The translations under genes and the position numbers were made by a program. This document shows, piece by piece, positions 4,114-41,131 of a DNA stretch of 64,000 bases. Origin of the DNA: an uncultured Chloroflexia bacterium (GTDB lineage Bacteria > Chloroflexota > Limnocylindria > QHBO01); the NCBI GenBank assembly GCA_963814375.1, contig CAWFCQ010000007.1:128001-192000 (forward strand). Direction: 5' to 3'. Position 1 is the first letter of the stretch. Every line of letters begins with the position of its first letter. The notes below the pieces were generated by a model. That model saw only the letters and a program-made list of their open reading frames with translations, was not told the DNA's origin and ran no database searches.

Positions 4114-5448
4114 ATGGCGATCGAGACCGAGCGAGGGGCGATGACGGGCGACGAGATCGTCGCGCTCACCAAGCGCCACACCCTGTTCGAGTGGTCGGCG
4201 CAGTCCAAGGTCGATCCCATCCCGGTGGCCGGCGCGAAGGGGGTCTACTTCTGGACGCCCGAGGGCAAGCGGTTCCTCGACTTCAACTCGCAGCTGATGT
4301 GCACGAACATCGGCCACGGGCATCCGAAGGTGATCGCCGCCATCCAGGCGCAGGCCGAGCAGCTGGCCTACGCGAACCCGTTCATGGCCACCGAGCCGCG
4401 GGCGCGCCTTGGACAGAAGCTGGCCGAGATCACGCCCGGCGACATCGACACCTTCTTCTTCACCAACGGCGGCGCAGAGGCGAACGAGAACGCGATCAAG
4501 CTGGCCCGATTCGTCACCGGCCGCCACAAGATCCTGACGCGCTACCGCTCGTACCACGGCGGCACGGCCGGCGCCATCAGCCTGACCGGCGACCCGCGCC
4601 GCTGGGCTGCCGAGCCGGGCATCCCCGGCGTGGTGCGCGTGCTCGACCCGTATCACGGCATCCAGCGCGGCTGGGACACCGCCGACGAGGCCCTCGCGAA
4701 CCTGGAGGAGACGATCCAGCTCGAGGGGCCGAACACGATCGCCGCCTTCATCCTCGAGACTGTCACCGGCACGAACGGCATCCTCGTTCCGCCGGACGGC
4801 TACATCGCCGGCGTGCGCGAGATCTGCGATCGCTACGGGATCATGATGATCGCCGACGAGGTGATGGCCGGCTTCGGGCGCACCGGCAAATGGTTCGCGG
4901 TCGATCACTGGGACGTGGTTCCCGACCTGATCACCATGGCCAAGGGCCTCACCAGCGCCTATGTCCAGCTCGGCGCCCTCGGCATGCGACGCAAGTACGC
5001 CGAGCACTTCACCGACAAGGTCTTCTACGGCGGCCTGACCTACAACTCGCACCCGCTGGCGTGTGCGACGGCCCTTGCCACGATCGCCGTCTACGAGGAG
5101 GAGAACCTCATCGAGCGCGCGGCGCAGATGGGCGAGGTGCTGAAGCAGCACCTATCGACGCTGGCCGACCGGCACCCGAGCATCGGCGCGACGCGCAGCA
5201 TCGGCCTCTTCGGCATCGTCGAGCTGGTCCGCGATCGAACCACCATGGAGCCGATGGCGCCCTTCAACGGCACATCGGACGAGATGGCGGCACTGGGCAG
5301 GAGATTCCGCGAGGAGGGCCTCTACACCTTCGTGCGCTGGAACACGTTCTTCACCAACCCGCCGCTCATCATCACGGAAGAGGAGATGGCCGAGGGCTTC
5401 GCGATCATTGATCGCGCCCTCGAGGCGACCGATGCCGCCGTCGGCTGA
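4114..5448 (+). CDS. Class III PLP aminotransferase (omega-amino acid/taurine/beta-alanine type)
   Basis: FLDFNSQLMCTNIGHGHP, SYHGGT, IADEVMAGFGRTG, DLITMAKG, GGLTY. Confidence 0.92.
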   Translation: MAIETERGAMTGDEIVALTKRHTLFEWSAQSKVDPIPVAGAKGVYFWTPEGKRFLDFNSQLMCTNIGHGHPKVIAAIQAQAEQLAYANPFMATEPRARLGQKLAEITPGDIDTFFFTNGGAEANENAIKLARFVTGRHKILTRYRSYHGGTAGAISLTGDPRRWAAEPGIPGVVRVLDPYHGIQRGWDTADEALANLEETIQLEGPNTIAAFILETVTGTNGILVPPDGYIAGVREICDRYGIMMIADEVMAGFGRTGKWFAVDHWDVVPDLITMAKGLTSAYVQLGALGMRRKYAEHFTDKVFYGGLTYNSHPLACATALATIAVYEEENLIERAAQMGEVLKQHLSTLADRHPSIGATRSIGLFGIVELVRDRTTMEPMAPFNGTSDEMAALGRRFREEGLYTFVRWNTFFTNPPLIITEEEMAEGFAIIDRALEATDAAVG

Positions 5449-6304
5449 GCGCCACGGCTGGCCCCGGCGCACGGCCACCTTCGTGGCCTTCGTCGTTCTC
5501 GCCCTCCTCGTCTGGGAGGTTCTGAAGTTCATCGGCGGCGATCCGTGGCGCTACTTCGGCTGGGAATGGCATCCGCCGCTCGAGATCTGGTTCGCCACCG
5601 ACCTTCGGCTGCCGCACGTGTGGGAGATCGGCGGAGCGCTGGTGAACCCGGTCCAGCGCAGCGCGGACGAGAGCCTGGCCCAGTTTCTGGCAGGCGCTGC
5701 CTTCTACACCTGGCGTGAGGCCGCGATCGGCTTCATCGCCGGAACCGTCATCGGCATCTCACTGGCCGCCGTCTTCGTGCACTCTGGCGTGCTCGAGCGC
5801 GCGTTCGTTCCCTACGTGATTGTCAGCCAGACGATCCCGATCGTGGCGCTCGCGCCGATGATCGTCTTCGCGTTCGGCCAGGACGTGACGAGCGTGGTCA
5901 TCATCGCCACCTACCTGACCTTCTTCCCGGTCACGATCGCGATGATCCGCGGCCTGCGGTCGCCGGATCCGCGCGCCCTCGAGCTCATGCGCAGCTACGC
6001 GGCGTCGAAGTGGAGCATCTTCTGGAAGCTGCGCATGCCCGCCTCGCTGCCGTATCTCTTCACCGCTCTGAAGATCGCGGCGACCGCCAGCATCGTCGGT
6101 GCGATCGTCGGTGAAGGGCCCGGTGGCATCCCCGATGGGCTGGGCCGCGCGATCATCAACTTCAACAACCAGTACGTGTCGGGCCCGGAGAAGCTGTGGG
6201 CCGCGATCGTCGCCACGGCCGTGCTCGGCATCGTCTTCTTCAGCCTCGTTCGACTGACGGAGGCGGCCGTTCTCCGCGGCCGCCCGACGGTGGGCGATGG
6301 ATAA
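5432..6304 (+). CDS. NitT/TauT-family ABC transporter permease
   Basis: SQTIPIVALAP, TFFPV, EAA-like loop ELMRSYAASKWSIFWKLRMP; start uncertain. Confidence 0.88.
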   Translation: MPPSAERHGWPRRTATFVAFVVLALLVWEVLKFIGGDPWRYFGWEWHPPLEIWFATDLRLPHVWEIGGALVNPVQRSADESLAQFLAGAAFYTWREAAIGFIAGTVIGISLAAVFVHSGVLERAFVPYVIVSQTIPIVALAPMIVFAFGQDVTSVVIIATYLTFFPVTIAMIRGLRSPDPRALELMRSYAASKWSIFWKLRMPASLPYLFTALKIAATASIVGAIVGEGPGGIPDGLGRAIINFNNQYVSGPEKLWAAIVATAVLGIVFFSLVRLTEAAVLRGRPTVGDG

Positions 6305-7148
6305 CAGCACGGCAAAGCTCGACCCCGGGGCAAGCGTCGTCCGAGTCGACGGCGCGGGCAAGACCTTCGCATCGCACGGTGAGAAGGGCCGGACGACCGC
6401 GCTGGAAGGCATCGACCTGGACATCCGCCGCGGCGAGTTCGTCAGCCTGATCGGTCCGTCCGGATGCGGGAAAAGCACCCTGCTGCGCCTTATCGGCGAC
6501 CTGACGGCTCCCACCGCTGGGATCGTGAGCGTCAACGGCAAGGGCGCCCACGAGGCGCGATTGGGTCGCGAGTACGGCATCGTCTTTCAAGCTCCGGTCC
6601 TGTTCGAATGGCGGACCGTCGAGGACAACGTGAAGCTGCCGCTCGAGCTGATCGGCATGGAACGCCGTGGGCGCCAAGCGCGGGCGCGCGAGCTGCTGGA
6701 GCTGGTGGAGCTCGGCGACTTCATGCGGCACTACCCCTACCAGCTCTCGGGCGGGATGCAGCAACGTGTCGCCATCGCCCGCGCGCTTGCCCTGGAGCCG
6801 GCGCTTCTGCTGATGGACGAGCCGTTCGGCGCGCTCGACGAGATGACGCGTGAGCGGATGAACAGCGAGGTGCTGCGGATCTGGCGGCAGACCGGGACCA
6901 CGATCGTCTTCGTGACCCACTCGATCCCGGAGGCGGTCTTCCTGTCGACGCGGGTGGCGGTCATGAGCGCTCGCCCCGGACGCATCACGCACCTGGTCGA
7001 GGTCGATCTGCCGCAGCCCCGCAACGAGCTTACCCGCGAGGAACCGCGCTACTTCGAGCTCGTGACCGAGGTGCGCGAAGCCCTGCGCGGCAGAGGGCCC
7101 TCCGGCGCATCGGTCGAGCGGATGGCGGCCGAGGGCGGGATCGGCTGA
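6297..7148 (+). CDS. NitT/TauT-family ABC ATP-binding protein
   Basis: GPSGCGKS, LSGGMQQR, LLMDEPFGALD, FVTHS. Confidence 0.95.
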   Translation: MDNSTAKLDPGASVVRVDGAGKTFASHGEKGRTTALEGIDLDIRRGEFVSLIGPSGCGKSTLLRLIGDLTAPTAGIVSVNGKGAHEARLGREYGIVFQAPVLFEWRTVEDNVKLPLELIGMERRGRQARARELLELVELGDFMRHYPYQLSGGMQQRVAIARALALEPALLLMDEPFGALDEMTRERMNSEVLRIWRQTGTTIVFVTHSIPEAVFLSTRVAVMSARPGRITHLVEVDLPQPRNELTREEPRYFELVTEVREALRGRGPSGASVERMAAEGGIG

Positions 7149-7161
7149 TGGCGGCAGCCGG

Positions 7162-8001
7162 ATGATCGCCTCCCCGGACGCGGGGCCGGCACCCGGCCTC
7201 CCCCGCCGGCTCGGCGCGCGCCTCGGCTACTACCTGCCGGCCGTGCTCGTGCTCGTCGGTGGGCTCCTCGTGTGGGAGGTACTGACCCGGGTGCTCAGCG
7301 TCCGCGCATTCATCCTTCCGCCGCCGAGCGCCATCGGGTCGGCACTCGGGGAGAACTGGAGCGGTGGCACATGGTCACTCGCGCCCTCGGTCATCGCCAC
7401 GCTGACCGAAGCGATCGGTGGCCTGATCATCGGCACGGTCACCGGGGTCGCCGTCGGCTTTGCCGTGGCGCGTTGGGCCACAGCGCGGGAGTCGGTCCTG
7501 CCCATTGCCATCGCGGCCAACGCGATCCCGATCATCGCCATCGCGCCGATCTTCAACAACTGGTTCGGGGTCCTCAACCCGCTCTCGAAGATGATGATGG
7601 CGGCGCTCCTCGTCTTCTTCCCCGTGATGATCAACGTGACCCGCGGCCTCTCGCAGGTTGAGCCGGCGGCACTCGAGCTGATGCGGGCGTATGCCGCATC
7701 CGAGTGGACGGTGCTGGCGAAGGTCCGCGTCCCGAACGCCCTCCCGTACTTCCTGACTGCCCTCAAGGTCGCCACCACCCTCAGCTTGATCGGCGCCGTG
7801 GTGGGCGAGTACTTCGGCGGCACCACCCAGGTCATCGGGCGGGTGGTGGTGCAGAGCGCGAGCGCGCTGCGCTTCGACGTCACCTGGGCCGCGATCCTGC
7901 TCATGGCGATCGCCGGGGTCATCATGTACGTGGCGGTGCTCGTCATCGAGCGGCTGCTGATTCCATGGCATCCGTCACTTCGGGCGCACGATCACTCCTG
8001 A
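7162..8001 (+). CDS. NitT/TauT-family ABC transporter permease
   Basis: ILPPPS, NAIPIIAIAP, KVRVPNALPY, VVGEYFG. Confidence 0.9.
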   Translation: MIASPDAGPAPGLPRRLGARLGYYLPAVLVLVGGLLVWEVLTRVLSVRAFILPPPSAIGSALGENWSGGTWSLAPSVIATLTEAIGGLIIGTVTGVAVGFAVARWATARESVLPIAIAANAIPIIAIAPIFNNWFGVLNPLSKMMMAALLVFFPVMINVTRGLSQVEPAALELMRAYAASEWTVLAKVRVPNALPYFLTALKVATTLSLIGAVVGEYFGGTTQVIGRVVVQSASALRFDVTWAAILLMAIAGVIMYVAVLVIERLLIPWHPSLRAHDHS

Positions 8002-34085: not shown

Positions 34086-34637
34086 ATGAGCGACTTCGTC
34101 GGGGTCACGACCAGCGTCCTGCGCCGCACGCCTCAGCTGCTGCGCACGCTGCTCGTCGGCCTGCCGGAGGACTGGACCGACACGACCGACATACCGGAGA
34201 ACGGCTGGCGGCCGCATGACGTGGTCGGCCACCTCATCACCGGCGAGCTGACGGACTGGATCGAGCGCACCCAGCGCATCCTCGAGCACGGCACCGCGGT
34301 GCCATTCGACCGATTCGACCGGTTCGCGCACGAGGGCCGCGACGCCGATACCAGCCTCGATGCCCTCGTCGAGCACTTCGCGCGGCTGCGCGCCGAGAAC
34401 CTGGCGCGCCTGGACGAGCTGGTGACGGAGGAGGACCTGGACCGGCGCGGCATGCATCCGACCCTCGGCGAGGTGACGCTCCGCGAGCTGCTGGCCACGT
34501 GGGCGGTCCACGATCTCGACCACGTGTCACAGATCTTCGCCGGCATGGCCGGCAGCCACGACGCCGAGGTCGGCCCCTGGAAGGCGTATCTCGGCATCCT
34601 CCTGCGCCGGGAGGACCCCGCCGCCGTCGCAGGGTGA
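34086..34637 (+). CDS. DinB-superfamily protein
   Basis: WRPHDVVGHL, HPTLGEVTL, WAVHDLDH. Confidence 0.85.
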   Translation: MSDFVGVTTSVLRRTPQLLRTLLVGLPEDWTDTTDIPENGWRPHDVVGHLITGELTDWIERTQRILEHGTAVPFDRFDRFAHEGRDADTSLDALVEHFARLRAENLARLDELVTEEDLDRRGMHPTLGEVTLRELLATWAVHDLDHVSQIFAGMAGSHDAEVGPWKAYLGILLRREDPAAVAG

Positions 34638-35374
34638 CGCCCGAGAGCATCCTCCTTGCGGCGCTCTTCTTCGCCGCGGCGCTGCTCTACGCGAGCGTCG
34701 GTCACGCAGGAGCGTCCGCATACCTGGCGGCCATGGCGCTCGTCGGCGTCGCGCCAGAGACGATGCGGCCGACAGCCCTCGTTCTCAACCTCTTCGTGGC
34801 GACGATCGTGGTCGTCCGCTTCGCGATGGCCGGCCACCTTCCGTGGCGTCAGCTCGTACCGCTGGCGATCGGATCGGTGCCGATGGCATTCCTGGGCGGA
34901 AGCATCGCGCTGCCGGATGAGGTGTACCGCCCCCTGGTCGCCGCGGTGCTCCTCGTCGCCGCCTGGCGGCTGTTCACCGCACCGGTACCGGTCGATGACA
35001 CGGATCGCCCGGGCGTCCCATTCCTCGCCGGCGTCGTGGCAGGCGCCCTCATCGGCCTCCTTGCCGGCCTGACCGGAACCGGCGGCGGCATCTTCCTGAC
35101 CCCTCTCCTGGTCCTCGCCGGCTGGACGGGGACGCGCGATGCGGCCGGGCTCTCGGGGTCGTTCATCCTCGTGAACTCGATCTCCGGGTTAGCCGGGCTG
35201 ATGACCGGGGGTTTGGTCCTGCCGCCGGCCCTGCCGATCTGGGTGGGATCGGTGGTGGCCGGTGGGCTCATCGGCTCGTGGTTCGGCGCAGCCCGCTACA
35301 GCGTGCTGAGCCTCCGGCGGGCATTGGCGTTCGTCCTCGTGCTGGCGGCCGCCAAGCTCGTATTCCTGCCGTGA
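34634..35374 (+). CDS. Sulfite exporter TauE/SafE (TSUP) family
   Basis: YASVGHAGASAY, GLTGTGGGIFLTP, FILVNS; GTGA overlap. Confidence 0.88.
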   Translation: MTPESILLAALFFAAALLYASVGHAGASAYLAAMALVGVAPETMRPTALVLNLFVATIVVVRFAMAGHLPWRQLVPLAIGSVPMAFLGGSIALPDEVYRPLVAAVLLVAAWRLFTAPVPVDDTDRPGVPFLAGVVAGALIGLLAGLTGTGGGIFLTPLLVLAGWTGTRDAAGLSGSFILVNSISGLAGLMTGGLVLPPALPIWVGSVVAGGLIGSWFGAARYSVLSLRRALAFVLVLAAAKLVFLP

Positions 35375-35397
35375 CAGCGGGGGTAGGATGGGCGCCG

Positions 35398-36822
35398 ATG
35401 ACGGCCCCCCAGCAGCCCGCGTTGCACGGCAGCGACCGCCTCCGCCTCGTCGGCGCCGAGACCGAGGTGCCGCTCGTCACGGGCGGCACCCGTCGCTACG
35501 TCAACCTCGATTACGCCGCATCCGCGCCGGCGCTGGTCGCCGTCCACGACGCGGTGGAGGAGCTGCTCGGCTGGTACTCGAGCGTCCACCGCGGTGCCGG
35601 CTTCAAGTCGCGCGCCTCGACCGCCGCCTACGAGGGCGCCCGCGAGTCTATTCGGCGGTTCGTGAATGGCCGCGCCGACGACGCCGTGGTCATCACCCGC
35701 AACACGACCGACTCCATCAACCTCCTGGCCGGAACCCTTCCCGAGGGCACCCACGTCGTCGCCTTCGCCGGCGAGCACCACGCCAACCTTCTCCCCTGGC
35801 AGCGATGCGGCGTGCGCTACATGGGCGTGCCCCAGAGCCCGGCCGAGATGCTCGAGACGCTCGAGGCGACGCTGCGCGAGCTGCCGTCCTGCGAGGACCC
35901 GCACCTGGTTGCGACGACCGGCGCCAGCAACGTGACCGGCGAGATCTGGCCGCTGGGCGAGATGGCACGCATCGCCCACGACAACGGCGCCCGGCTGCTC
36001 GTCGATGCCGCACAGCTCGCTCCGCATTCGCCCATCGACATGCAGCGCGACGGCATCGACTTCCTGGCGCTATCCGGCCACAAGCTGTACGCCCCGTACG
36101 GCGCGGGCGCGCTCATCGGCGAGCGCGACTGGCTGATCGCCGGCGACCCGTTCCTGCGCGGCGGCGGCGCGGTCAAGCTCGTGACGGTCGACGAGACGGT
36201 GTGGGCCGATCTCCCCGATCGCCAGGAAGCTGGCTCACCGAACGTGATCGGAGCGGTCGCCCTGGGCGTCGCCTGCGACACGCTGGCCGAGGCCGGTATG
36301 GACCGCATCGCGGCCGAGGAAGCCGAGCTCCTGGCCTATGCTCGCGAGAAGCTCGCCACGATCGACGGATTCCGCCACTACCACGTCTGGCCGTCCGATC
36401 ACGCCCGCGTCGGCCTCCTCACCTTCAGCCTGGGCGAGGTCCCGTACGATCTCCTCGCCGCCTGCCTCTCGGCCGAGCACGGCATCGGCATCCGCCACGG
36501 CTGCTTCTGCGCCCACCCCCTCATGGTCCGTCTGCTCCGCGTCGACGACGGGGAGGTCGACCGCCTGCTCGACGAGACCCGCGCCGGCCACCACCTGCGC
36601 CTCCCGGGAGCCGCCCGCATGAGTCTCGGGCTCGGCTCGACCCGCGCGGACATCGACGCCCTCGCCGATGCGCTGCGCGCCATCGCCACCGAGGGGCCGC
36701 AGTGGACGTACCGCGTCGATCCCCGGACCGACGAGTACGAGCCCTACCCCGATCCTCGCCCGCTTCCGCCGCTGCCGATGCGCCTCGTTGACCACCCGCA
36801 TGGCCACGGGGAGTCGGCGTAG
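35398..36822 (+). CDS. Class V PLP enzyme, cysteine desulfurase-like
   Basis: NLDYAASAP, EHHANLLPW, VDAAQ, SGHKLYAP, RHGCFCAHP. Confidence 0.9.
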   Translation: MTAPQQPALHGSDRLRLVGAETEVPLVTGGTRRYVNLDYAASAPALVAVHDAVEELLGWYSSVHRGAGFKSRASTAAYEGARESIRRFVNGRADDAVVITRNTTDSINLLAGTLPEGTHVVAFAGEHHANLLPWQRCGVRYMGVPQSPAEMLETLEATLRELPSCEDPHLVATTGASNVTGEIWPLGEMARIAHDNGARLLVDAAQLAPHSPIDMQRDGIDFLALSGHKLYAPYGAGALIGERDWLIAGDPFLRGGGAVKLVTVDETVWADLPDRQEAGSPNVIGAVALGVACDTLAEAGMDRIAAEEAELLAYAREKLATIDGFRHYHVWPSDHARVGLLTFSLGEVPYDLLAACLSAEHGIGIRHGCFCAHPLMVRLLRVDDGEVDRLLDETRAGHHLRLPGAARMSLGLGSTRADIDALADALRAIATEGPQWTYRVDPRTDEYEPYPDPRPLPPLPMRLVDHPHGHGESA

Positions 36823-36870
36823 GGGGTTGAGCGCGCACATGCGCCGCGTCACCGCTACCGTATCGGTCAC

Positions 36871-37527
36871 ATGAGGATCGGTGCGGCCTTGGGGAGCCAT
36901 CGGCCTGCGATCGCCTTCTGGGCGGTGGCTGCGCTCGCCCTGCTCGCCAGCCACGACGCGATCTTCCTCGTCCAGGTCGGTCCGGGCGAGGAGCTCGCGC
37001 GCCTGCTCCGAAGTGCGGGCCACGGCTACTGGGGACTGGCCAGCACCATCATCGGCGTCGCCGGCATTGGTGTCGGAATCGCCGCAGCCCTCCGCCTTCG
37101 GGCGTTGCGACGCCGGGCAGCCGGCCTGCCGGCGGCACCCATCGGATCGCGGGGCGTCAGGGACATCCTGCCGATCTGGGGCCGCCTGCTCGCCGTCGTT
37201 GCCGTCGGCTTCATGGTCCAGGAAAACGTCGAGCACTTCATCGCGCACGGCCACGTGATGGGACTCGCCGCATTGGCCGGCCCGGAGTATCCGCTCGCGA
37301 CGCCCGTCATCGGCCTCATCTCGTTGGCCGCTGCCATCGTCGTCGGGTTGTTCGTCCACCACGAACGGGCTCTGCTGGCATCGATCGAGGCGGCGCTGCG
37401 CGTCAGCCTCCGCCCGGTTCGGGCACTCGTCCGCGCTCCCGGCCAACTCCGCGTCCATCCGGCGACCGGCCTCGCCCAGCCGGGCGCCGGGCGCGCCCCT
37501 CCTCTCGTGCCGCTCAGGATCGGATAA
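36871..37527 (+). CDS. 4-TM His-rich membrane protein with C-terminal RAPP motif (putative ribosome-arrest regulator)
   Basis: SHD, GHGYW, QENVEH, AHGH, HH; RAPP at residues 208-211 (37492-37503); first gene of the copper cluster. Confidence 0.75.
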   Translation: MRIGAALGSHRPAIAFWAVAALALLASHDAIFLVQVGPGEELARLLRSAGHGYWGLASTIIGVAGIGVGIAAALRLRALRRRAAGLPAAPIGSRGVRDILPIWGRLLAVVAVGFMVQENVEHFIAHGHVMGLAALAGPEYPLATPVIGLISLAAAIVVGLFVHHERALLASIEAALRVSLRPVRALVRAPGQLRVHPATGLAQPGAGRAPPLVPLRIG

Positions 37528-37574
37528 CCAGAGCAAGCGGGCGCGGGACTCAGCCGCGACCCGGCACAGAGGAG
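37499..37574 (+). promoter_or_regulatory. SD-sequestering stem linking the RAPP codons to the next gene's RBS
   Basis: CTCCTCT(C)GTGCCG (37499-37512) is complementary to CGGCACAGAGGAG (37562-37574): 13 bp with one bulge; ATG at 37585. Confidence 0.75.
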
Positions 37575-37584
37575 TCATCAACCC

Positions 37585-38175
37585 ATGCACAGTCGCATCG
37601 GACGGGCTGCCGTCCTCTCCATGCTGCTCGTCGCCCTCGCCGGAATTGGCACGGCGAGCGCCCACGAGGAGCGCGAGGTCGGCGATCACACCTTCGTCGT
37701 CGGCATGCTCGACGAGCCGGTGTTCGCCGGCCAGAAGAGCGGCCTCGAGCTGCGGGTCTCGCACGAGGGCACTGAGCCGGTCGAGGGCCTCGAGGAAACC
37801 CTCCAGGCCGAGGTCACCTTCGGCGGCGAGACGCGCGAGCTCGAGATCTCGCCGATCTTCGGTGAGCCGGGCGCCTACCGCTCGGTCTTCTTCCCGACCG
37901 CCGCGGGACCGTATTCGTTCCGCATCTTTGGCGAGGTCGAGGGCGAGCCGTTCGACGAGACCTTCACTGCCGGACCGGACACCTTCGGGGAGGTCCAGGA
38001 CGCTGCCGGCGGGCAGTTCCCGGTCCAGTACCCGCCTACCGGTGACATCGTGAGCGACGCAGAGGCCGGTGCGGCAGCCGGAACGACCGCCACGATCGCC
38101 CTGGTCCTCGGCTCGGCCGGCCTCCTCGCGGGCGTCGCCGCACTCGGCCTCTCGCTGGCACGCCGGCGAAGCTGA
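37585..38175 (+). CDS. Exported, C-terminally anchored protein with mature N-terminal His (putative Cu-binding)
   Basis: Signal peptide ending TASA|HEE, acidic beta-rich domain, C-terminal TM plus RRRS. Confidence 0.75.
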   Translation: MHSRIGRAAVLSMLLVALAGIGTASAHEEREVGDHTFVVGMLDEPVFAGQKSGLELRVSHEGTEPVEGLEETLQAEVTFGGETRELEISPIFGEPGAYRSVFFPTAAGPYSFRIFGEVEGEPFDETFTAGPDTFGEVQDAAGGQFPVQYPPTGDIVSDAEAGAAAGTTATIALVLGSAGLLAGVAALGLSLARRRS

Positions 38176-40064
38176 TGCCCCGGCTCCGCCGCTGGCGCTG
38201 GGCCGCGGTCGGCGCCTTCGTCGCGTTGCTGGCGCTCCCGGCGGTGCCGGGTGGCGCGGGCAGCCGCGTGCTGGCTCATGCCCAGCTCGTGGCGAGCTCG
38301 CCGAGCCCGGGCACGATCCTCGAGGAGCCTCCCACCGAGCTGCGGCTCGTCTTCAGCGAGCCGCTCGAGTCCCAGGTCACTTCGCTCGACCTCGTCACGC
38401 AGGACGGGACCGAGCTGCTGGTACGCGCCGGCGAGATCGACCCCAACGATCCCTACGCCCTCGTTGCCACCGCCCCCGGCCTCGCCGACGGGGTGTACTC
38501 GGTCACGTGGCGCACCCTGTCGGCTGCCGACGGGCACACCATCGAGGGCTTCTTCACCTTCGGCGTGGGTGAGATCGAAGGAGGGCTGCCACCCGTCGGT
38601 CCTGGCTCGGCCCACGCCGAGACCGACGCGATCGGGGTCCTCGGGCGGTGGCTGACCTACATCGGGCTGCTCCTCGCCATCGGCCTCGCCGCCTTCCATC
38701 GGTTCGTTGTTCGAAATGGCCCGATGCCGGTCGCCCTCGTGCGCCTCATCGCGGCCGGGCTCGCCGTCTCGGCGGTGGCGACGCTGGCGACGGCGGTCGG
38801 ATCAGCCGTGGCAGCCGGCGCGGGCGTCGACTACCTGCTCGGCACGCGCAACGGCGCGCTCCAGCTCGCTCGCGCGGCCGTTGCCGCGCTCGGCGCCATC
38901 TCGCTCCTCGTCGCCCCGCGTCGCTTGACGGGCGCCCTCGCGGCGGCCACGGGACTCATCGGCGTCGTGCTGCTCGCCGCCGCCGGGCACGCGGCCGCGC
39001 TGCCGGGTCCGGTCCCGGTGATCAGCCAGGCCGTGCATGTGGTCGCGGCCGGCATCTGGATCGGCGGGCTGGCCGGGCTGCTGATGCTCCTGGTTGCACC
39101 GGCGGTGATCAGCGAGGAGGGGCGGATCGAGATGCGCAGCGTCGTGCCGCGCTTCTCGGCGCTGGCGCTGGGATCGATCGGCATGGTGGTGCTGACCGGC
39201 GCGTACGCCGCGTGGATGGAGATGGGTGCGCTCCTCGACGTCGGCACCGAGTACGGCCGCACACTGCTGATGAAGGCCGGCCTCGTCGCCGGCGCGCTCG
39301 CCCTCGGCAGCCTCAACTACTTCGACGGCGGCCGGATGCGGCCATGGCTCGACGGATTCCGCACACGGCTCTCGGTGGAGGTCATGGTCGCGGCAAGCGT
39401 GCTGCTGATGACCGCCGTGCTGGCCACGACGCCGCCGATCCACGCTGCCGGCGGTGTCGCCATCGAGCCGGTCCCGGATGCCTTCGGGAACGTGGCGCCG
39501 CAGATGGAGATGCACGTAGTGCCGGGCCGGCCCGGCGTGAACCGTGTCGTCGTCACCACGACCGACGCCCTTGCATCGGCTGCGGGGATGGAGCTCGGGT
39601 TGGATCGGCTCGATACCGGCACGAGCACACGCGTGCCGCTCGTCCTCGAGGGGACCCAGGGCATGGGCGGCATGGAGGGAATGGACCACGCCGACGCGGC
39701 CACCGCCGATGGCGACGACAGCGTCGACTGGGTCGCCGATGCCCTGATCCTGCCCGCCGGAAGCGACTGGAGCACCAGCGTCCGGATCCTCGCCACCGAT
39801 GGAAGCGAGCTGTCGCGCCAACGGTTCGACTTCGCGCTGGGGCCGGATGGAATCTCCGAAGGCGAGGTCCGGGACCTACTCAATCCGGCAACGCTCATTG
39901 CAATCGCCCTGGCTCTCGGAGGCGCGCTCGGCATCGGCCTTGGCCTGGGCGGCTTCATCATCCCGCGCTGCGAGGCGCTCGCGTCACGCGTTGCCCTGGT
40001 GGGCGGCGGCGTCACGGCCATGGTCCTCGGCTTGTTGATGGGCATCAACGGGCTGATCGCCTGA
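38175..40064 (+). CDS. CopC-CopD fusion copper transport protein (YcnJ-like) with C-terminal extension
   Basis: VLA|HAQLVASSP, LVFSE, WRTLSAADGH, AGHAA, VHVVAAGIWIGGL, RFS, TEYGRTLLMK; MGGMEGMDH. Confidence 0.9.
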   Translation: MPRLRRWRWAAVGAFVALLALPAVPGGAGSRVLAHAQLVASSPSPGTILEEPPTELRLVFSEPLESQVTSLDLVTQDGTELLVRAGEIDPNDPYALVATAPGLADGVYSVTWRTLSAADGHTIEGFFTFGVGEIEGGLPPVGPGSAHAETDAIGVLGRWLTYIGLLLAIGLAAFHRFVVRNGPMPVALVRLIAAGLAVSAVATLATAVGSAVAAGAGVDYLLGTRNGALQLARAAVAALGAISLLVAPRRLTGALAAATGLIGVVLLAAAGHAAALPGPVPVISQAVHVVAAGIWIGGLAGLLMLLVAPAVISEEGRIEMRSVVPRFSALALGSIGMVVLTGAYAAWMEMGALLDVGTEYGRTLLMKAGLVAGALALGSLNYFDGGRMRPWLDGFRTRLSVEVMVAASVLLMTAVLATTPPIHAAGGVAIEPVPDAFGNVAPQMEMHVVPGRPGVNRVVVTTTDALASAAGMELGLDRLDTGTSTRVPLVLEGTQGMGGMEGMDHADAATADGDDSVDWVADALILPAGSDWSTSVRILATDGSELSRQRFDFALGPDGISEGEVRDLLNPATLIAIALALGGALGIGLGLGGFIIPRCEALASRVALVGGGVTAMVLGLLMGINGLIA

Positions 40065-40111
40065 GCGTGCCCACGTTGCGCCCGGGGCCGCAGACTGCGA
40101 CGATCAGGCCG

Positions 40112-41131
40112 ATGCCCGCTGACCTAACCGTGCTCGATACCTTGGGTCGGCCCATGCGCGACCTGCGCGTCAGCGTCACCGATCGGTGCAACTTCCGCTG
40201 CACGTACTGCATGCCGAAGGAGGCTTTCGGGCCGGATCATGCCTTCCTCGCGCGCGAGGAGACCCTCACCTTCGAGGAGATCTTCCGAATCGTCCGCGCC
40301 GCCGTCGGGCTCGGGGTCCGCAAGGTCCGCCTCACCGGTGGCGAGCCCCTCGTCCGCCGCGGTCTCGAGCAGCTTGTCGGTCTCCTCGCGCCGATCGAGG
40401 GAATCGAGGACCTCACGCTCACGACGAACGGCTCGCTCCTCGCGGCCCGCGCATCGGCCCTCGCGGCGGCGGGGCTCCAGCGGGTCACGGTGAGTCTCGA
40501 CGCGCTCGACGACGAGACGTTCATGGCCATGAACGACGTTGGCTTCGGCGTTGCCCGCGTGCTCGAGGCCATCGATGTGGCCCAGTCCGCCGGCCTCGGG
40601 CCGATCAAGGTCAACACGGTCGTCAGGCGCGGCGTGAACGAGCACGCGATCGTCGATCTCGCCGCTCATTTCCGCGGCCACGACACGACGGTGCGCTTCA
40701 TCGAGTACATGGATGTCGGGCACACGAATGGGTGGCGCCTCGACGAGGTCGTCCCCGCGGCCGAGATCGTGGCAACCATCGATGCTCGCTGGCCGCTCGA
40801 ACCGGTGGATCCCGGCTATCGCGGCGAGGTGGCGCAACGCTATCGGTACCGGGACGGAGCCGGCGAGATCGGCGTCGTCAGCAGCGTGACCCAGCCGTTC
40901 TGCGGCGATTGCACCCGCGCGCGGCTCTCCGCCGACGGCCACCTGTACACGTGTCTCTTCGCGACCGTCGGCCATGACCTGCGCACCCTGCTGCGCTCCG
41001 GCGCGGATGACGCGCAGCTGACCGAGGCGCTGCGGATCCTGTGGGCCGGCCGCTCGGATCGCTACTCGGAGCTCCGATCGCTCGAGACTATCGGACTTCC
41101 GAAGGTGGAGATGAGCTTCATCGGCGGCTGA
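40112..41131 (+). CDS. moaA: GTP 3',8-cyclase
   Basis: SVTDRCNFRCTYCMP, LTGGEP, FCGDCTRARL, CLF, C-terminal MSFIGG. Confidence 0.96.
   Translation: MPADLTVLDTLGRPMRDLRVSVTDRCNFRCTYCMPKEAFGPDHAFLAREETLTFEEIFRIVRAAVGLGVRKVRLTGGEPLVRRGLEQLVGLLAPIEGIEDLTLTTNGSLLAARASALAAAGLQRVTVSLDALDDETFMAMNDVGFGVARVLEAIDVAQSAGLGPIKVNTVVRRGVNEHAIVDLAAHFRGHDTTVRFIEYMDVGHTNGWRLDEVVPAAEIVATIDARWPLEPVDPGYRGEVAQRYRYRDGAGEIGVVSSVTQPFCGDCTRARLSADGHLYTCLFATVGHDLRTLLRSGADDAQLTEALRILWAGRSDRYSELRSLETIGLPKVEMSFIGG

Follow-up and report, generated by a model that had tools for sequence, protein, structure and literature searches.

Copper-responsive arrest leaders and the Chloroflexia locus

SecM, MifM, VemP and ApdA/ApdP are monitors of Sec or YidC activity that precede sec or yidC genes and carry an arrest motif, which is RAPP in ApdA/ApdP and RAGP in SecM. 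To our knowledge, translational copper sensing by a nascent chain has been shown experimentally only for CruR and CutF, both of which are Cys-based DUF2946 proteins. Here we describe a leader gene in a 64,000-nucleotide stretch of DNA from an uncultured Chloroflexia bacterium (GenBank assembly GCA_963814375.1, contig CAWFCQ010000007.1, positions 128,001 to 192,000), referred to below as the window. The gene encodes a 218-residue protein with four predicted transmembrane (TM) segments and a C-terminal RAPP, and it stands at the head of a copper operon. We read the protein as a RAPP translation-arrest leader that senses extracytoplasmic copper and unmasks the Shine-Dalgarno (SD) sequence of the next gene, and we assign this reading a probability of about 0.55.

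The closest described systems differ in their output and in their response to copper. CruR (Bp2923) of Bordetella pertussis combines a CXXC motif with RAPP; copper is reported to relieve the RAPP arrest, and the operon is down-regulated by copper through Rho-dependent termination (mBio 2022, PMC9426467). A toeprint of CruR placed the two Pro codons of RAPP in the P and A sites of the ribosome (PMC12992588). For CutF of Rhodobacter capsulatus, stalling is described as opening an SD-shielding stem-loop, and copper induces the stalling, turning on a detoxifying oxidase (mBio 2023, PMC9973294; bioRxiv 10.1101/2025.02.05.636593). A survey of small RAPP/RGPP proteins in 52,895 genomes reported their enrichment upstream of YcnI-family, PCu(A)C, PepSY and thioredoxin genes, and those encoded by upstream open reading frames before YcnI-family genes were mostly transmembrane (EMBO J 2025, PMC12992588). 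In the same report from the Chiba laboratory, seven Streptomyces lividans proteins with a C-terminal RAPP or RGPP all arrested translation in PURE systems and in vivo, including SLIV_18480, which has four TM segments and a predicted His3Met copper site.

We compared the window family with the published description of SLIV_18480. Both are predicted to span the membrane four times and carry R-A/G-P-P shortly before the stop codon; in both, a copper gene follows on the same strand and conserved His residues are proposed as a copper site. SLIV_18480 is described with Cys40, Cys127 and a Met ligand, whereas the window family has no conserved Cys or Met ligand and offers two His and two Glu. The downstream gene also differs, belonging to an unannotated family of exported His proteins and not to DUF1775/YcnI, and the host is a member of the Chloroflexota and not of the Actinomycetota. 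The initial annotation had proposed that a Cys-free polytopic His sensor would form a distinct class. This was overstated, since transmembrane RAPP/RGPP leaders, including the four-TM SLIV_18480, had already been reported (PMC12992588); the window protein represents a strongly conserved, unannotated Chloroflexota family of leader-sensors that belongs to this recently described kind and is not a separate class. The annotation had also credited both CruR and CutF with CxxC plus RAPP, which agrees with the description of CruR (PMC9426467) and not with that of CutF, which has CxxxC and a "proline-rich" motif, the word RAPP being absent from PMC9973294.

Like the window leader, CruR is encoded by the first gene of a copper operon and ends in a C-terminal RAPP; the nascent chain senses copper in CruR and would do so here, and we propose the polarity of CruR for the window leader too. 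In contrast, CruR is described as a small DUF2946 protein with CXXC and a Rho-mediated output, whereas the window leader is Cys-free and polytopic and is predicted to act by SD unmasking. The proposed mechanism resembles that described for CutF in that a ribosome stalled at a C-terminal Pro motif melts the SD-shielding stem of the next copper gene and in that the sensor part is extracytoplasmic. However, CutF is described as a Sec-exported, soluble DUF2946 protein with CxxxC, whereas the window leader is a four-TM protein with His/Glu motifs that precedes acquisition genes and would respond with the opposite polarity; moreover, in the window's clade the arrest codons themselves form the predicted anti-SD. 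With SecM, MifM, VemP and ApdA/ApdP the leader shares an N-terminal localization signal, a C-terminal arrest motif and the proposed unmasking of a downstream SD, but it precedes copper genes and carries a conserved ligand-like site. A DUF2946 profile matched none of 93 members of the leader family at E ≤ 0.1, and the window protein matched no Pfam family. A literature search found no paper on the Chloroflexota leader family, although the appendix and source data of PMC12992588, which lie outside this comparison, may list members. The His2Glu2 signature, the use of arrest codons as the anti-SD in the window's clade, and the membership of proteins ending in RSPP or RPPP may be new.

A conserved leader family ahead of copper genes

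The leader protein ends in AGRAPPLVPLRIG followed by the stop codon (also given as ...PGAGRAPPLVPLRIG and stop) and contains no Cys. Its His residues are at positions 10, 28, 51, 122, 126, 128, 163, 164 and 196, and the motifs SHD, GHGYW, QENVEH and AHGH are all present. A simple hydropathy script identified four hydrophobic segments (Table 1), and RAPP begins 46 residues after the last of them. All elements of the protein named in the initial annotation were recovered. Lys and Arg number 2 in the N-terminus, 5 in loop 79–97, 0 in loop 117–143 and 8 in the tail, a positive-inside pattern consistent with both termini in the cytoplasm and the His/Glu motifs facing outward. Profile searches of Pfam, NCBIfam and PDB sequences with the leader returned no family, the PDB matches being at chance level; no Pfam family was matched consistently by 93 diverse homologues, and no profile similarity was found between the leader and CopD. 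The source genome is GC-rich (2.52 Mb, 8 contigs, 89% complete), and 86 of its mechanical open reading frames of 40–300 residues have R[AG]PP within 15 residues of the end, with hydrophobic segments only in the leader. Because a C-terminal RAPP is common in such a genome and the fold z-score of the adjoining RNA is modest, the case is built on conservation and comparison.

A word-index search found 141 homologues, and an exhaustive search of 50%-identity representatives found 311 at E ≤ 0.001. Among 268 homologous proteins fetched for a motif count, RxPP lies within 20 residues of the C-terminus in 246 (241 RAPP, 4 RGPP and 1 RSPP). The remaining 22 are short fragments or have an odd length, and the three longest of those inspected are frameshift read-throughs. 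The motif is present in 55 of 58 genome loci. In 40 close homologues the invariant residues are A206, R208, A209, P210, P211, H28, D29, H51, W54, Q117, E118, E121, H122 and H126. In 93 diverse representatives (alignment A2) the invariant columns reduce to H28, H51, E118, E121, R208, P210 and P211, and in 17 sequences with about 20% identity to the window protein (alignment A8) the same seven columns were again the sole invariant ones. Over 56 sequences the motif is written with six Arg, four Ala and all four Pro codons, and this variety of synonymous codons indicates selection on the peptide. These comparisons make ribosome arrest at RAPP very likely.

The spacing of the motif is conserved as well. 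The Arg of RAPP lies 69–70 residues from the conserved E[YF]PLA that opens TM4 in 125 of 169 homologues and 67–75 residues from it in 168 of them, and the tail after RAPP has 7 residues in 107 of the 169. The linker between TM4 and RAPP is conserved in length and poorly so in sequence, which suggests that the geometry between TM4 and the peptidyl-transferase center matters. No Cys column is conserved, and 145 of 234 full-length homologues are free of Cys altogether. Apparent long "fusions" (P0195 with 689 residues, P0183 and others) proved to be frameshift read-throughs into the next genes without domain fusion; longer fused forms were not searched for.

The leader is linked to copper genes in most loci. 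The exported His protein (gene 2 of the window) is encoded directly 3' of the leader in 47 of the 58 loci, and CopC/CopD follows as well in 40; 7 further loci end before that point. Most of the remaining loci form a second subfamily, with SCO1/SenC and/or PCu(A)C downstream in 6 of 6 loci scanned by Pfam. SCO1/SenC and PCu(A)C are chaperones that supply cytochrome oxidase with copper. Of 301 genomes searched by profile, 24 gave a match, a tally that includes three genomes flagged as unpublished (G145, G173 and G272), which contributed nothing further; 16 further places were taken from other families of the phylum. RxPP is present in all 16, with Ala in 5, Ser in 4, Pro in 6 and Gly in 1 at its second position, and 12 of the 16 have a copper gene (CopC, CopCD, the His protein, SCO, PCuAC or cupredoxin) no more than 3 kb downstream. 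Of the rest, 2 are followed by thioredoxin-like, BNR and MauE genes and 2 by nothing recognizable. No sec or yidC gene was found downstream of the leader in the 58 + 16 loci examined. The initial annotation had named conserved His residues, a C-terminal R[AG]PP and linkage to copC/ycnI-type genes as checks on homologues, and the homologues show conserved His residues, a C-terminal RxPP and linkage to copper genes.

Within the second subfamily, paralogous four-TM RAPP leaders head the SCO1/SenC and PCu(A)C operons of L044, L046, L047, L050, L053 and L056 (at about 4600–7700), and in L056 these genes are followed by one for a 567-residue protein with a second SCO1 domain. The distant members that end in RSPP (4 places) or RPPP (6 places) come from L064–L074; the leader of L064 precedes a cupredoxin gene, and those of L062 and L065 precede thioredoxin-like, BNR-repeat and MauE/DoxX genes. 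Because RSPP and RPPP occur within the same family, surveys keyed to RAPP/RGPP undercount such switches. One genome (G124) has four copies of the leader.

The distribution of the leader is patchy among close kin, with 2 of the 15 other genomes of the window's own family carrying it. A scan of public contigs with patterns from close relatives returned only metagenome-assembled genomes labeled Chloroflexota and two labeled Steroidobacteraceae. L005 and L024 show a typical Chloroflexota-type operon under Steroidobacteraceae record titles, which may reflect mis-binning. In L039, L041, L049, L055 and L058 the leader or its neighbors are split across frames in tblastn, and these are probably assembly frameshifts and not real pseudogenes. 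The Atlas neighbors of one homologue (P0073) carry Actinomycetota and Vulcanimicrobiota labels, which we take as a lead only. No leader homologue was found in the plasmids searched.

The protein encoded by gene 2 has a signal peptide and a C-terminal membrane anchor, and its invariant His, H27, is the predicted first mature residue (AxAH|E; alignment A4). We found 734 homologues, all of them "hypothetical" and none with a Pfam family, that share the motifs EPV, PTAAG.YTF and GQFP. Searches with gene 2 of Pfam, NCBIfam and PDB sequences gave no match beyond chance level. DUF1775 (YcnI) was not matched by gene 2 and had no match at E ≤ 0.01 in the genome, which is 89% complete. The gene 2 product probably binds copper as a partner of CopCD and takes the place of YcnI. 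In its Atlas neighbor cluster 15% of members have YtkA (PF13115), again a lead only. The stop codon of gene 2 overlaps the ATG of the CopC-CopD gene by one base (TGATG, 38173–38177), which suggests translational coupling; the SD control of gene 2 would then extend to CopCD.

Predicted pairing between the presumed arrest codons and the Shine-Dalgarno sequence

The leader and gene 2 are separated by a 57-nt spacer. The initial annotation had proposed that codons near the Pro-Pro pair of RAPP pair over 13 bp with the SD region of gene 2, and this pairing, which we call P1, was recovered in the minimum free energy (MFE) fold of 37470–37600. It joins 37499–37505 to 37568–37574 (7 nt, 100%) and 37507–37512 to 37562–37567 (6 nt, 100%), giving 13 bp with C37506 bulged. 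The GGAG at 37571–37574 sits 10 nt 5' of the ATG at 37585. The P1 sequence pair is unique in the window, occurring in two places only with 0 expected. When the bases covered by a ribosome holding P210 in its P site were blocked in the model, the unpaired probability of the SD core rose from 0.00 in the free RNA to 0.46, and a block placed 10 codons upstream left it at 0.00. A scan for intrinsic terminators returned 0 sites; the intergenic hairpin P3 has no following U tract and is thus not an intrinsic terminator. An Rfam search gave no family and one chance-level match (E 0.75). Perfect complements of 6–7 nt also exist between the Arg-Ala-Pro and preceding Gly codons and the arms of P3 (37492–37498 with 37539–37545, and 37486–37491 with 37560–37565), and such alternative pairings may add to the switch.

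For comparative tests we used the window's clade (30 loci and the window, 31 sequences) and a separate set of 19 more distant loci. In the 31 clade sequences the region from RAPP to the start of the next gene folds in a recurring three-way design, P1/P2/P3, in which the SD is paired, in P1, with the Pro-Pro codons or the bases directly following them, and P2 pairs tail codons with bases just past the stop codon, which lies in or next to the loop. The first Pro codon is CCU in 20 of the 31, compared with 4.6% of 3834 background Pro codons from the same loci, and CCUCC is the exact complement of GGAGG. Where the Pro-Pro codons read CCGCC, a CCUCC- or GUCCUC-type element occurs a few codons downstream (e.g. 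in L034 and L012).

In 25 of the 31 loci the MFE fold joins at least three bases of the SD core to positions up to P-site+15. The null for this count, in which the 22-mer was swapped for other in-frame 22-mers of the same leader, gave 9.6 expected and a maximum of 21 in 200000 simulations. In 14 of the 31 the duplex that the footprint forms with the SD is among the best 5% found for any window of the leader, and cognate arms pair better than arms swapped between loci (P = 0.008 for P1; for P2, 0 of 20000 permutations reached the cognate mean). These data argue that SD unmasking by the stalled ribosome is rather probable in the window's clade. The features of the locus are listed in Table 1.

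Table 1. Features of the leader operon, with positions in the window
Feature	Position	Strand	Basis
Conserved motif CTACCGTATC, 7 nt before the leader ATG	36855..36864	+	alignment A7
Leader (putative sensor) gene, 218 aa, four TM segments, C-terminal AGRAPP and 7-aa tail	36871..37527	+	open reading frame list; homologue searches
TM1, residues 16-34, with invariant H28 (36952-36954)	36916..36972	+	hydropathy; alignments A1, A2, A8
Invariant H51 (37021-37023, GHGYW), then TM2 (residues 56-74)	37021..37092	+	hydropathy; alignments
TM3 (residues 98-116), then QENVEH with invariant E118 (37222-37224) and E121 (37231-37233)	37162..37233	+	hydropathy; alignments
TM4 (residues 144-162), with the fixed-length linker onward to RAPP	37300..37356	+	hydropathy
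Presumed arrest site R208-A209-P210-P211, codons CGC GCC CCT CCT	37492..37503	+	RxPP conservation
P1 5' arm (predicted anti-SD) CTCCTCT-C-GTGCCG, inside the footprint of a RAPP-stalled ribosome	37499..37512	+	fold; inverted-repeat search
Hairpin P2, loop with the leader stop TAA (37525-37527)	37512..37534	+	MFE; co-variation of arms
GC-rich intergenic hairpin P3	37539..37562	+	MFE
P1 3' arm CGGCACAGAGGAG, holding the gene 2 SD (GGAG 37571-37574)	37562..37574	+	fold; inverted-repeat search
Gene 2, 196-aa exported protein	37585..38175	+	open reading frame list; alignment A4; directly downstream of the leader in 47/58 loci
Gene 3, 629-aa CopC-CopD fusion (YcnJ-like)	38175..40064	+	Pfam CopC 1.5e-18, CopD 3.4e-13

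A proposed mechanism and its alternatives

This analysis shows how the locus is built, how far it is conserved and which genes it is linked to, together with a predicted RNA pairing that co-varies; from these results we infer the arrest itself, copper binding, force transmission and polarity. The leader would insert as a four-helix bundle, N-in/C-in, with H28, H51, E118 and E121 at the outer face. The ribosome would stall on R208-A209-P210-P211, its P site holding Pro210 and its A site Pro211, a placement taken by analogy from the CruR toeprint (PMC12992588). At the stall all four helices would be outside the tunnel, which would be spanned by the linker of about 46 residues and conserved length. 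Since the four-helix bundle would thus be outside the ribosome at arrest, the outer-face His2Glu2 set is the natural place for a signal. By covering 37499–37512, the stalled ribosome would free 37562–37574 and with it the SD, some 55 nt downstream, and the start of gene 2, and gene 2 and then the overlapping CopCD gene would be translated. Once the arrest is released, the 7-codon tail would be read, termination would take place inside P2, the three-way structure would refold and the SD would close.

The likely modulator would be extracytoplasmic copper, which at the His2Glu2 site would alter the pull on the nascent chain. His and Glu ligands and an outer location would be compatible with Cu(II). 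That copper is the signal sensed by the leader has, in our estimate, slightly better than even odds. As to polarity, we favor a CruR-like response, in which copper releases the arrest and turns the operon off, over a CutF-like, copper-induced stalling, because the genes that follow work in the uptake and delivery of copper (CopCD/YcnJ-like, SCO1, PCuAC). This choice, drawn solely from the nature of the downstream genes, is tentative, and we place it somewhat below an even chance.

A more far-reaching proposal is that the leader is an independently arisen, non-DUF2946 nascent-chain copper sensor. A membrane-embedded His2Glu2 Cu(II) site would signal mechanically via TM4 and the linker of about 46 residues to RxPP, and in the clade the CCU-CCU arrest codons would serve as the anti-SD. 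The module would have been coupled to four or more extracytoplasmic copper modules (His protein with CopCD, SCO1/PCuAC, cupredoxin and thioredoxin-like), with the motif drifting from RAPP to RSPP/RPPP. Taken as a whole this proposal is conceivable, with odds of about one in three. The leader family would offer a second and chemically different copper sensor (polytopic, Cys-free, with His/Glu ligands) joined to a compact predicted RNA switch, and would extend the mechanism to Chloroflexota and to the copper chaperones of cytochrome oxidase (SCO1/PCuAC). Two unnamed families, the leader and the exported His protein, gain an annotation. The four ligand-like residues and RxPP, invariant at about 20% identity, make a clear-cut signature, and the locus provides specific residues and base pairs for mutation.

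Several observations weigh against the copper-sensing, SD-unmasking reading or narrow it. The fold z-score of the window is only -1.88, and 9 of 200 shuffles fold as well. The null for pairing between the SD and the footprint is itself high, at 31%, and the P values are inflated by the relatedness of the clade loci. Blocking the footprint opens the SD by at least 0.2 in only 11 of the 31 loci, and the mean rises from 0.16 to 0.31; the opening is small because other pairings form instead in the model. From MAFFT alignments of the region between RAPP and the next start (31 and 16 sequences) RNAalifold gave no consensus structure, the alignments being structurally incoherent, and in a 7-sequence alignment (A6) the helix arms were misaligned and no covariance model was built from it. 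Covariation of the stem, which the initial annotation had named as a check, is thus supported by the permutations of cognate arms and not by RNAalifold. In the 19 distant loci the footprint is no more complementary to the SD than expected by chance (2 of 19 pass the 5% level), the Pro-Pro codons are mostly CCGCCG, and the spacers are longer and very GC-rich. Since the signal is at chance there, the anti-SD is a feature of the window's clade and not of the whole family.

Further points of this kind concern the protein and its expression. The putative His2Glu2 metal site (H28, H51, E118 and E121) is predicted from conservation and topology alone; all four residues are predicted at the outer face. 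The 218-residue protein is conserved over its full length and could have a function of its own beyond sensing. Two public RNA runs with 4–5% of the sampled words gave only short, unlike pieces and one 186-nt contig over 38026–38211 with 8 differences, which is uninformative on transcription. Taken together, the comparative data support the core of the initial annotation, namely a RAPP arrest leader with an anti-SD and control of copper genes, with the anti-SD confined to the window's clade.

Among the alternatives, the one that survives best keeps the same arrest and sensor and changes the output to transcriptional polarity, as in CruR: the stalled ribosome would block Rho, its release would let Rho terminate between the leader and gene 2, and the SD stem would be secondary. 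This mechanism has been described for CruR (PMC9426467), the genome encodes Rho (Rho_RNA_bind 3.7e-31), and the more distant family members, which lack the anti-SD signal, must use another output. However, the short intergenic region of the window (57 nt) is highly structured and is not enriched in C relative to G (GC skew 0 to -0.1), which makes it a poor Rho loading site, and the CCU enrichment and the co-variation of P1 indicate SD masking. We therefore consider Rho polarity unlikely as the output in the window.

A constitutive, metal-independent arrest would couple the synthesis of the exported copper proteins to translation and insertion of the leader, with the mRNA perhaps held at the membrane in an XBP1u-like manner. 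The leader is polytopic, both downstream products are exported or membrane proteins, and in the fold model the SD stays shut as long as the leader is not translated, all of which agree with such coupling. It nevertheless leaves unexplained both the outer-face His2Glu2 set that stays invariant down to about 20% identity and the exclusive association with copper and redox modules, and we hold it to be improbable.

We give a similarly low standing to the idea that the leader is a working part of the copper system, for instance a membrane partner of the His protein and CopCD that binds or transfers Cu(II), with RAPP merely slowing the end of synthesis or serving autoregulation. Conservation over the full 218 residues, far more than in classical leaders, and the conserved ligand-like residues would be expected of such a protein, but the module stands ahead of unrelated copper modules (CopCD, SCO1/PCuAC, cupredoxin and thioredoxin-like), which better fits a portable regulator, and the fixed linker and invariant C-terminal RxPP are features of an arrest sensor. 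Still less probable is a MifM/CliM-like monitor of membrane insertion, in which insertion of a TM segment by YidC or Sec, and not copper, would release the arrest. TM segments followed by a C-terminal arrest motif, with TM4 about 46 residues from the arrest site, are the architecture of known monitors; yet none of the loci examined has sec or yidC behind the leader, and force-profile work indicates that a TM4 at 46 residues should be inserted before the ribosome reaches RAPP. Finally, a chance ending in RAPP of a GC-rich open reading frame beside an accidental stem, which the 86 mechanical open reading frames and the z-score might have suggested, is refuted by hundreds of homologues with an invariant motif in synonymous codons and conserved synteny, and its probability is negligible.

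We also examined the region upstream of the leader. A sigma-70 consensus promoter scan found none. In an alignment of 17 upstream regions (A7), columns C70, G71, T72 and A73 are invariant and T74 is at least 90% conserved; these belong to the motif CTACCGTATC, whose function is inferred as possibly promoter-like (a TANNNT-type -10?). No SD precedes the leader ATG in the 48-nt gap upstream of the leader (36820–36870), which suggests a very short 5' untranslated region. The CTACCGTATC region may be the operon's own promoter with an operator, giving a near-leaderless mRNA. Relatives carry an imperfect inverted repeat resembling GGCATGCG-N-CGCGTGCC further upstream of CTACCGTATC.

Beyond this gap lie a TauE-family gene and a class-V aminotransferase gene, both assigned by Pfam, and the pair (34499–36822 in the window; L001–L045) is syntenic with the leader operon in most close relatives. 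On the other side, 3' of CopCD at about 40100–41131, the end of a long mechanical open reading frame resembles a radical-SAM protein of the MoaA type (CNFRCTYC motif), as judged by eye.

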